DNA from: a bacterium
GTDB lineage: Bacteria > UBA8248
DNA: 64,000 nucleotides
Assembly: GCA_965207065.1 (NCBI GenBank)
Contig: OZ242260.1
Coordinates: forward strand, 1,856,001 to 1,920,000
Direction: 5' to 3'
The position numbers and the translations under genes were made by a program. This document shows, in pieces, positions 50,324 through 51,601 of this stretch. Below the pieces are notes generated by a model. That model had not been told where the DNA came from and did no database searches. It saw nothing but the letters and a program-made list of their open reading frames with translations. Position 1 is the first letter of the stretch. Each line of letters starts with the position of its first letter.

Positions 50324-50986
50324 ATGTCCAACATCACCATGATCGACATTGAGGATCTGAAGAAGACGAAGCTGGCCCCTTTCCTCAACAAGGCGCTCAA
50401 GCACCGCGCGCCCGACCCCGCATTTCACGCCATGCAGGGCCACAACGAGGAACTGGCGAAATCGATGTACCTCGCCTGGGGCACGGTGTTCAATACCGGC
50501 GTCATCGACCACAAGCTCAAGGAGATCATCCGGGTTCAGCTATCGCGTCGCGCCTTCTGCAACTACTGAGGGAACGTGCGTTCTGCTTCGGCGAAGCAGG
50601 CGGGCCTGACGGAAGAGATGATAGACGAGGGCATCGACAACTGGCGCGAGAGCGAACTTTTCACCGACGCCGAAAAGCTGGCCCTCGAATATAGCGAACT
50701 CATGGATTCAGAGCCCGAGAAGATTGATGAGGCCTTCTACGCGAGGCTAAGAGAACACTACTCGGACGAGGAAATCGTGGAACTCGGCTCTTTCATCGGT
50801 TTCAACGTGGGCTACCATACATTTTTCAGGACGCTCGATTTCTACCCCATGTTCTCCCCCGACGGCCGGCTGGTGAGCCAGGAGGAATCGCGGCGCATAT
50901 ACGGCGATTGCCCCGTCTCGCACATGAGCGGCCCGCTCGCTCGCGCGATCGAAGAGGGCGAGGCGCAACAGGCCAACGGAAGTTAG
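50324..50986 (+). CDS. AhpD/carboxymuconolactone decarboxylase-like selenoprotein, 220 aa, CxxU with Sec at codon 82 (TGA 50567-50569)
   Basis: In-frame reading LKEIIRVQLSRRAFCNY-U-GNVRS; colinear with the uninterrupted neighbour paralog; hairpin downstream of the TGA. Confidence 0.9.
50579..50602 (+). promoter_or_regulatory. Putative bacterial SECIS element
   Basis: CTGCTTC-GGC-GAAGCAG stem-loop 13 nt after the UGA, G at the loop start. Confidence 0.68.
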
Positions 50987-50995
50987 GAGGACGCC

Positions 50996-51601
50996 ATGTC
51001 GATTATCGAGCCGCTCGAGCCCGAAGGGATTGAAGAGAAGGACTGGAAGCGCGTCATGGGGCGCACCGCCGAGACCCAGGCGCCCGATGAGCTGTTCTCG
51101 CGCATCATGGCGCATGCGCCCGGCTACGCCGCCGCCCTGCACGACGCGATGCACCGCTCCCACGCCATGGGCGGGGTGGACCACAAGCTCAAGGAGATGG
51201 TCCGCATCCAGCTCGCCAGAACCGCGCAGGACACCTACTTCGCGAACCTGCGCTCCGAACAGGCGAAAAAAGAGGGCCTGACGGAAGAGCGCATCGAGGC
51301 CGCCTGCGGGGATTACGAGAACGACCCGCAGTTCACGGACGCCGAGAAGTGGGCGCTCAGGTTTTCCTATTTGATGTACAGAGACGCCGCGAAGCTGGAC
51401 AAGGAATTCTACGACGAGGGCAAGAAGCACTTCACCGAAGCCCAGATCATGGAGCTCGGCGCGATGGTGGCGCTTCACTACGGTCTTCAGGTCTTCATGC
51501 GCACGCTCAAGGTCTATCCCCTCCACGATCCGGAGGGCAACCCCGTGACGCAGGAGCAGTCCGAGCAGATCTACGGAAAAGACGTGCCCCTGCCCGCCTG
51601 A
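50996..51601 (+). CDS. AhpD/CMD-like paralog lacking the redox motif (DTYF in place of CNYU)
   Basis: DHKLKEMVRIQLARTAQDTYFANLRS, FTDAEK, IMELG. Confidence 0.85.
   Translation: MSIIEPLEPEGIEEKDWKRVMGRTAETQAPDELFSRIMAHAPGYAAALHDAMHRSHAMGGVDHKLKEMVRIQLARTAQDTYFANLRSEQAKKEGLTEERIEAACGDYENDPQFTDAEKWALRFSYLMYRDAAKLDKEFYDEGKKHFTEAQIMELGAMVALHYGLQVFMRTLKVYPLHDPEGNPVTQEQSEQIYGKDVPLPA

Follow-up and report, generated by a model that had tools for sequence, protein, structure and literature searches.

A predicted two-subunit AhpD-like selenoenzyme: a CxxU selenoprotein encoded beside its redox-dead paralog in a bacterium of the UBA8248 lineage

Could a gene that is interrupted by a single in-frame TGA, and the paralog that directly follows it, encode the two halves of one selenium-dependent enzyme? 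The question is raised by a locus in a bacterium of the GTDB lineage UBA8248, which lies in a 64,000-nucleotide stretch of contig OZ242260.1 (assembly GCA_965207065.1, positions 1,856,001 to 1,920,000 of the forward strand); this whole stretch was analysed here and is called the window. Two plus-strand genes stand side by side in it. Gene A (50324..50986) encodes an AhpD-like protein of the CMD family with a UGA codon in its redox motif, and gene B (50996..51601) encodes a related protein that lacks the redox residues. From the comparative evidence presented below, we consider it reasonably likely that A and B are two subunits of one AhpD-like thiol/selenol oxidoreductase.

The UGA codon of gene A

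Two open reading frames (ORFs) of the same frame, 50324-50569 and 50576-50986, are joined through a single TGA at 50567-50569, where the protein sequence reads FCNY-U-GNVRS. Read-through of this codon yields a product of 220 residues (...RAFCNY-U-GNVRSASAKQ...) with selenocysteine (Sec) at position 82, which ends at a TAG stop (50984-50986); by sequence inspection, a Shine-Dalgarno sequence, AAGGAG (50311..50316, plus strand), lies 7 nt 5' of the ATG. The product matches the Pfam CMD profile PF02627 with 30 bits (gathering cut-off 23). Its motif is E67-x11-C79-x-Y81-U82-x3-R86, with C79-x-x-U82 as the redox centre, and C79, Y81, U82 and R86 are invariant among the 81 A sequences that we aligned. 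TGA also serves as a normal stop in this region, as it ends both the upstream aminotransferase gene (50273-50275) and gene B (51599-51601), and a global reassignment of TGA is therefore not the explanation.

Is this TGA kept when the rest of the gene changes? A scan for relatives, with one genome per species, found 253 stretches that encode a relative of A, of which the best 80 loci were kept. TGA stands at the Sec codon in all 80 of these loci, well above what chance would give, and TGC, TGT and TGG in none; the surrounding codon context, C-N-Y-TGA-G-N-V-R-S-A-S-A-K, is likewise invariant. Going by the record titles, the loci span at least seven phylum-level labels, and the groups named are Nitrospinota, Acidimicrobiia, Rhodospirillales and other Alphaproteobacteria, Gammaproteobacteria (one record), Tectomicrobia, SAR324, Verrucomicrobiota and Anaerolineales. 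The relatives are 69–97% identical to A in amino acids, the nearest being the Nitrospinota-labelled loci (87–97%), and both sides of the TGA are under strong purifying selection.

When 1.84 billion cluster representatives were searched with a profile, 1598 matched at E <= 0.001. The top matches were N-terminal fragments that end at position 81 and C-terminal fragments that start at positions 85-127. Among distant full-length homologues, 12 of 25 records carry Cys at the Sec position within a C-x-x-C-x-x-x-R-S motif (P0265, P0267, P0279, P0281, P0287, P0293, P0295, P0298, P0299, P0302, P0304 and P0313), and the family thus shows the Sec/Cys exchange by which selenoproteins are classically recognised. 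Inside the A clade, Cys was found at this site in none of the 80 loci, and as far as these sequences go, the clade appears to use Sec obligately.

The protein databases give a different picture of A and set a trap for annotation, since most of its records are fragmentary or carry Trp at the Sec site. Among the 120 database matches listed, 100 are 121–151 residues long and cover 43–62% of the query, which is the length expected of gene calls that begin after the UGA. All seven of the full-length-like records examined have Trp at the Sec site; because the genome loci have TGA there and never TGG, this Trp is best read as the product of gene calls made under a table in which TGA encodes Trp.

The candidate signal for decoding the UGA, a hairpin resembling a selenocysteine insertion sequence (SECIS), lies at 50583..50599 on the plus strand. 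It starts 13 nt 3' of the UGA, overlaps the codons for S-A-S-A-K-Q and consists of a 7-bp stem, CUGCUUC/GAAGCAG (arms 50583-50589 and 50593-50599), with the apical loop GGC. In an alignment of 72 stretches of 60 nt, 71 of them distinct, the 13-nt core of the hairpin, GCUUCGGCGAAGC, is invariant among the distinct sequences. This core includes the four-fold-degenerate third positions of GCU, UCG and GCG; the four codons that precede it all vary at their third position. Columns 21 and 35 of the alignment covary (U-A in 50 sequences, C-G in 19, U-G in 2 and a broken pair in 0), a covariation in which a synonymous UCU/UCC exchange goes together with a Gln/Arg exchange. Overall, 96% of the hairpin cells are paired, compared with 30–63% after the 3' partner is slid by 1–3 columns, and the observed covariation score was reached by 0 of 500 shuffles. 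A figure legend of the Sargasso Sea selenoprotein paper (PMC1088965) points out guanosines conserved within the apical loop of bacterial SECIS elements, with which the GGC loop agrees. The support for a SECIS role of this hairpin is comparative.

The genome, a single contig of 4.48 Mb, encodes the machinery that such a signal would need. The genome search found selA, selB, selD and tRNA-Sec, each above its curated cut-off; selA adjoins selB, selD has an in-frame TGA of its own (C1:543537-544499), and ARAGORN reports a tRNA-SeC with the anticodon TCA. Taken together, these results indicate that A is almost certainly a genuine selenoprotein, with the UGA at 50567..50569 as its Sec codon. The first-pass annotation of this DNA had joined the two ORFs into one protein on the strength of a gapless alignment with the next gene, had pointed out the hairpin after the UGA, and had looked to the Sec genes and to Cys in homologues for a decision. 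The analysis bears it out on all of these points. Trp in homologues, which it would have counted against Sec, does occur in the seven database records but in none of the 80 genomic loci.

Other genes of this genome carry in-frame TGA codons as well. At least five further AhpD-like genes have one at a C-[A/D]-Y-U-x-x-H site; the TGA-containing AhpD-like matches lie on G000:C1 at 571033-571569(-), 478521-479051(+), 3286698-3287075(-), 1382982-1383368(+), 235440-235787(+) and 2851675-2851965(+) (loci L107–L112), the first five of which are those inspected. The genome also has one CxxCxxxH form (3022255-3022713). Seven of its 14 matches to the AhpC/TSA family PF00578 contain one in-frame TGA (for example, 1973387-1973755, 1974040-1974423 and 2878804-2879163). 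The genome is selenoprotein-rich, which fits the 48–54 selenoproteins that BSepDB lists for Nitrospinota-labelled metagenome-assembled genomes of UBA8248, as stated in the part of PMC13326102 available to us.

Gene B and the inheritance of the pair

Gene B (201 residues) begins only 9 nt after the stop codon of A, and its Shine-Dalgarno sequence, AGGAGG (50985..50990, plus strand, by sequence inspection), overlaps that stop codon. It matches PF02627 with 25 bits (cut-off 23) and is 37% identical to A over 199 residues (E 2e-46), the one gap in the alignment being near the C-terminus. In a comparison of 81 A and 78 B sequences, Cys79 of A is replaced by Asp in 77 of the 78 B sequences and Sec82 by Phe, also in 77 of 78; the B of the window has D79 and F82. 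Both proteins keep E67, R70, Y81, R86 and S87 as fixed residues. Eight further positions (P42, W119, Y128, G142, K143, E148, A159 and Y162) are fixed in B only, and these residues of its own mark B as a conserved, specialised protein rather than a decaying copy. Of the 78 B sequences, 44 have gaps in the C-terminal tail (TQEQSEQIYG in the window) that is common to B and A. Thus, the description of B in the first-pass annotation, as an AhpD/CMD paralog of A that lacks the redox motif and aligns without a gap across the TGA, agrees with the Pfam scores of both proteins, the residue counts and the position of the sole gap, and we regard B as very probably a dedicated redox-dead partner of A.

If B is dedicated to A, the two genes would be expected to travel together. 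By tblastn, B lies directly 3' of A in 79 of the 80 loci; in the remaining one, L051, only 136 nt of sequence follow A. The two genes are distinct in 78 loci, where they either leave a short gap or overlap by a little; in L102 (SAR324), they form one frame of 426 codons (5001 to 6278). Fusions of this kind also occur among the long database proteins (281–371 residues): in all 13 examined, a low-complexity linker connects the part of A that follows the UGA to a B domain, and two of them are titled Betaproteobacteria and one SAR324. Adjacent A, with one TGA, and B are present in 27 of 41 related genomes, including 22 of the 22 of the same genus, and B was not found without A in any of these 41. 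The pairing seen in the window is therefore conserved, both among the loci and among the related genomes.

Two of the 41 genomes have only a stand-alone relative, S, of about 186 residues, at L113 (G025:C91, 2000-2545) and L114 (G029:C76, 1913-2455). S is 47% identical to A and 39–44% identical to B, and its motif is C-S-Y-U (CSY-U-[S/K]NVRSA); no B-like gene was found beside it within about 2 kb on each side in the fetched stretches. What preceded the duplication may have been similar to these S relatives.

A maximum-likelihood tree of 73 rows, rooted at the midpoint only, places A and B in a clade each (support 95/97 for A, and 84/59 for B, which is recovered in 82% of the bootstrap trees), and S is placed as sister to A with weak support (93/50). 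One outgroup row, O_L108, is a mis-extracted string of 76 residues on a very long branch, and the A, B and S groupings are unaffected by it. The same sub-groups recur within A and within B, the B branches being 2–3 times longer. Since each paralog forms its own clade and the sub-groups match, the tree points to one old duplication, after which both copies would have been inherited as a cassette. One cluster of the tree mixes a Gammaproteobacteria-titled, a Verrucomicrobiales-titled and two Acidimicrobiales-titled loci, and such clustering across groups points to horizontal spread of the cassette.

Two further arrangements were observed in this family. A tandem two-domain relative of 376 residues (P0269) reads C-E-Y-W at the site in domain 1 and C-P-E-W in domain 2, where the W of domain 1 is possibly another TGA that was called as Trp. 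In the Alphaproteobacteria-titled locus L085, the A-B pair is flanked by divergent selB-selA and by a fusion of the pyridine-nucleotide-disulfide-oxidoreductase/AIR-synthase type (1501-4838, 6318-8576), which corresponds to the Ndh-SelD type described in the available text of the Global Ocean Sampling (GOS) paper.

Pairing of the two proteins and the proposed chemistry

Do A and B bind to each other? The natural A-B fusions are the strongest comparative argument that they do. A complex prediction was run with database A records, headed by P0002 (70% identical to the A of the window, with W at the Sec site), and with the B of the window plus 36 relatives as the partner. The score was 0.95 in three runs, compared with 0.00 for the best of three controls; among solved complexes, 58 of 80 reach this mark, and among mismatched pairs, 2 of 110. 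The runs agreed in at least 98% of the contacts, with a partner pLDDT of at least 93, and the predicted interface is pseudo-symmetric, with residues 3-5, 37-59, 77, 127-139 and 147-172 taking part in both chains. In B, this surface is more conserved than the rest of the protein (mean top-residue frequency of 0.77 vs. 0.65). Gene fusion, co-inheritance and the complex prediction together suggest that A and B probably form a heterodimer. The first-pass annotation had proposed a hetero-oligomer; that proposal is strengthened by co-inheritance, by fusion and by a prediction that goes past its controls, and it keeps the standing of a prediction.

Which fold and which active site would such a dimer have? 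The structure model of B (pLDDT 93.7, pTM 0.90) matches Deinococcus radiodurans AhpD (6k40) with a Z score of 16.9 and a root-mean-square deviation (rmsd) of 2.5 over 176 residues. It also matches 2oyo, 2prr and 2pfx, PA0269 of Pseudomonas aeruginosa (Z 15.2) and, with a lower score, sestrin2 (Z 9.4–12). The fold is thus that of AhpD-like proteins of about 185 residues, with Z 16–17 to structures of this type. The model of the A homologue P0002 (pLDDT 74.7, from a 5-row alignment) was only moderately confident, and the fold comparison is based on the model of B. PA0269 is the best sequence match of both A and B in the PDB (E about 3e-9). Its relay residues E36, C48, Y50, C51 and H55, which correspond to E118, C130, H132, C133 and H137 of Mycobacterium tuberculosis AhpD (MtAhpD) in the passages available of PMC3141380, map onto E67, C79, Y81, U82 and R86 of A and onto E67, D79, Y81, F82 and R86 of B. 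Measured against the catalytic AhpD relay, E-x11-C-x2-C-x3-H, A departs in two residues, with Sec for Cys and R86 for His, and B is without any redox residue of the relay. Arg in place of the relay His is also found in the Cys-containing distant relatives, so that R86 is characteristic of the branch rather than adapted to Sec. MtAhpD attacks AhpC with the second Cys of its motif as the nucleophile; by analogy, Sec82 would be the attacking residue of A.

These observations can be explained if A and B are two subunits of one AhpD-like thiol/selenol oxidoreductase. The UGA at 50567-50569 would be decoded as Sec under the direction of the hairpin at 50583-50599, SelB and tRNA-Sec, and the resulting C79-x-x-U82 centre would sit in the relay positions of the family, E67, Y81 and R86, with Arg where AhpD has His. 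B would stem from one old duplication of a Sec-containing ancestor, having lost the redox residues while retaining the fold and most of the dimer surface, and it would pair with A through the two-fold dimer interface of the family to give a single selenium centre per A-B dimer. By analogy with AhpD, Sec82 would attack a partner or substrate in its oxidised form, be it a peroxiredoxin, a disulfide or a hydroperoxide. Cys79 would then resolve the adduct as a selenenylsulfide, and a reductant would recycle the centre. As to the reaction itself, we give AhpD-like reduction of a peroxide or of a peroxiredoxin about an even chance.

Several results count against this reading. The hairpin, folded as a single sequence, has an energy no better than that of shuffles (z −0.46 and −0.98). 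RNAalifold missed it and returned a different, weak structure (−3.17 kcal/mol), and a search of Rfam gave no relevant family at the gathering threshold or at E <= 10, the match seen being a chance small RNA (E 0.79). Judged by curated cut-offs, A and B are not members of TIGR01926 (A scores 38.8 against a cut-off of 81.8, and B does not match) or of NF053654 (70.7 bits for A and 44 for B, far below the cut-off of 310). The relay His is replaced by Arg, the neighbours of the pair differ between phyla, and the window holds no AhpC or other peroxiredoxin, as 0 of the 14 genomic PF00578 matches fall inside it. With regard to pairing, the paralog-specific fixed residues show no significant enrichment at the predicted interface, either in B (5/12 vs. 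41/163, p 0.18) or in A (15/56, p 0.53). The complex score may reflect family likeness, because the relatives in the PDB homodimerise or form hexamers, and the prediction, which was made with a database homologue of A and for A-B only, does not separate a heterodimer from homodimers.

The points on pairing would also suit an arrangement in which A and B are each homo-oligomeric and act in sequence without binding to each other, B being, for example, a non-catalytic binder or chaperone of the substrate or of a peroxiredoxin, or a regulator of A. The solved relatives are homo-hexamers, trimers or dimers, as far as the passages of PMC3141380 describe them. However, the single-chain A-linker-B proteins (L102 and the 13 database proteins) are explained by a tied heterodimer and not by separate homo-oligomers, and the tight co-inheritance, with short or overlapping junctions, and the higher conservation of the predicted interface of B likewise speak for contact between the two. 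We therefore consider separate homo-oligomers unlikely.

Even if the A-B dimer is real, its selenol could serve another reaction, such as reductive dehalogenation of the kind carried out by Bmp8 or the reduction of some other small electrophile. The B model has Bmp8 (6ohi/6ohj) among its best structural matches (Foldseek rank 1, TM 0.71/0.75; Z 16.0–16.1), and Bmp8 is also a sequence match of A and B (E 2e-4); the gene context of the pair is catabolic and variable, and not antioxidant in most loci, and the Arg at the relay His would fit as well. On the other hand, several AhpD and peroxidase-related structures match just as well as Bmp8 (Z 16–17), whose identity is only 18–20% and whose likeness lies in the fold and in a weak sequence match. 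Neither a halogenase nor a dehalogenation context was seen, and a peroxiredoxin with an S-W-C-P-F-C motif stands directly upstream, on the same strand, in 6 of the 80 loci. Such an alternative chemistry appears somewhat more improbable than separate homo-oligomers. We hold to be equally improbable a broader version, in which the pair would be an obligate heterodimeric selenoenzyme carried by a horizontally mobile two-gene cassette across at least seven phyla, with the Cys-less half recognising the substrate and Sec performing a reaction beyond peroxiredoxin recycling, for example, a deiodinase- or Bmp8-like reductive dehalogenation or some other reduction that serves detoxification in marine and symbiont bacteria.

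Finally, that the TGA is a true stop, a sequencing error or a pseudogene lesion between two separate or dead ORFs, as the splitting of A by standard gene callers and its mostly fragmentary database records would have it, has a negligible probability, since the same codon in 80 independent assemblies across phyla makes a sequencing error untenable, and since purifying selection on both of its sides, the conserved hairpin 3' of it, the Sec machinery of the genome and the at least five more AhpD-like genes of this genome with TGA at the CxxU site all speak for decoding.

Gene neighbourhood, known relatives and significance

Upstream of the pair, and given here as context only, lie an FAA-hydrolase-family gene (47827-48813) and a class-III aminotransferase gene (48908-50275), both on the plus strand. 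Many loci labelled Nitrospinota or Tectomicrobia (L025-L040, L044-L048, L050 and L052) have the same two genes upstream and those of the other phyla do not, and judging from the loci compared, this neighbourhood is lineage-specific and not a constant part of the system. A constant third gene besides A and B was sought across the 80 loci and none was found, the loci of other phyla having unrelated neighbours.

The A-B unit appears to be closed by a G+C-rich hairpin that resembles an intrinsic terminator, GCGCCCGCC-ATCC-GGCGGGCGC followed by TTTTTT (51622..51649, plus strand, by sequence inspection). A consensus terminator scan did not list this plus-strand hairpin at 51622, and a scan for sigma-70-like promoters between 47600 and 52000 gave no site. 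The 22-nt hairpin (51622-51643) recurs with one mismatch at 53455-53476, after an ammonium-transporter gene, and two matches in the window compare with 0.02 expected; the hairpin could be either a terminator that is used more than once or a small repeat element. The transporter gene itself (51975-53381), downstream of the pair, is of a marine subtype (TIGR03644, 517 bits vs. a cut-off of 514), and beyond it lies a creatininase-family gene on the minus strand (53489-54283), whose score does not reach the equivalog cut-off; the closest Nitrospinota-labelled loci keep both genes. Further downstream, the window contains a complete rRNA operon (58131-63628), with 16S at 58131-59682, 23S at 60435-63431, 5S at 63514-63628 and tRNAs at 60004-60077 and 60206-60278.

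How does the pair compare with what has been published? AhpD-like CxxU selenoproteins (COG2128/YciW, TIGR01926) were described from the Sargasso Sea in 2005 with 27 sequences (PMC1088965), were represented in the GOS data in 2008 by 299 "AhpD-like 1" sequences, among the most abundant families (PMC2398784), and appear again in reviews of 2022 and 2026 (PMC9312934, PMC13188914). Like A, this family combines the CMD/AhpD fold with a CxxU motif whose second residue is Sec and with a bacterial SECIS directly after the UGA, and, in the passages available of these papers, it is abundant in marine uncultured bacteria, as is the A clade. The same passages treat it as a single protein, whereas A is tied to a Cys-less paralog, and those available to us mention no partner paralog; in the 2026 review, neither a heterodimer nor a paralog came up. 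Literature searches likewise gave no description of an A-B pair and, judged by title or abstract, no paper on a heteromeric CMD/AhpD protein. The published "AhpD-like 1" set could be the same clade as A. The best NCBIfam match of both A and B is NF053654, "YciW-related (seleno)protein", which covers Sec- or Cys-containing AhpD-like proteins of similar length with a 179-position profile.

The CxxC alkylhydroperoxidases MtAhpD and PA0269 share with A the all-helical fold and the relay geometry, their motif E-x11-C-x-[H/Y]-C-x3-H corresponding to that of A, and they are oligomeric through a two-fold dimer, as is predicted for A-B. Unlike them, A has Sec for the second Cys and Arg for the relay His, is about 75 residues longer than PA0269 and has a conserved C-terminal tail; it also has a dedicated inactive partner where they are homo-oligomeric, and no ahpC adjoins it in the window. 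A parallel in architecture is provided by the sestrins (SESN-A/SESN-C) and by fused AhpD-like dimers with a Cys-less "pseudo domain" from Corynebacterium ureicelerivorans and Comamonas aquatica. According to the text available of a 2024 sestrin review (PMC11429811), a catalytic unit is packed in these proteins against a Cys-less AhpD-like unit, as we propose for A-B. In contrast to the fused proteins, A and B are in most cases (78 of 80 loci) encoded by neighbouring genes of their own, and the catalytic unit works with Sec. The thiol-dependent debrominase Bmp8, a CMD-fold dehalogenase, has the same AhpD-like fold of about 190 residues as B (rmsd 3.0 over 176 residues), but its identity is low, as given above, and no brominated-pyrrole gene cluster is present at the A-B locus.

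The novelty that the first-pass annotation saw in this locus was thus overrated, as publications already describe both CxxU AhpD-like selenoproteins and AhpD dimers in which one domain is a Cys-less pseudo-domain. What is new here is the two-gene Sec form, its strict co-inheritance across phyla, the occasional fusion, and the predicted pseudo-symmetric dimer with one selenium.

Among marine selenoproteins, those of the AhpD-like CxxU type rank with the most abundant, and we know of none of them with an established substrate or quaternary structure. The A-B clade gives the family a testable architecture, namely, one selenium centre per pseudo-symmetric dimer, and suggests that B should be present whenever A is expressed and assayed. 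It also offers a clean natural example of the path "duplicate, inactivate one half, then fuse", which has been proposed as the origin of the sestrin-type two-domain AhpD proteins.

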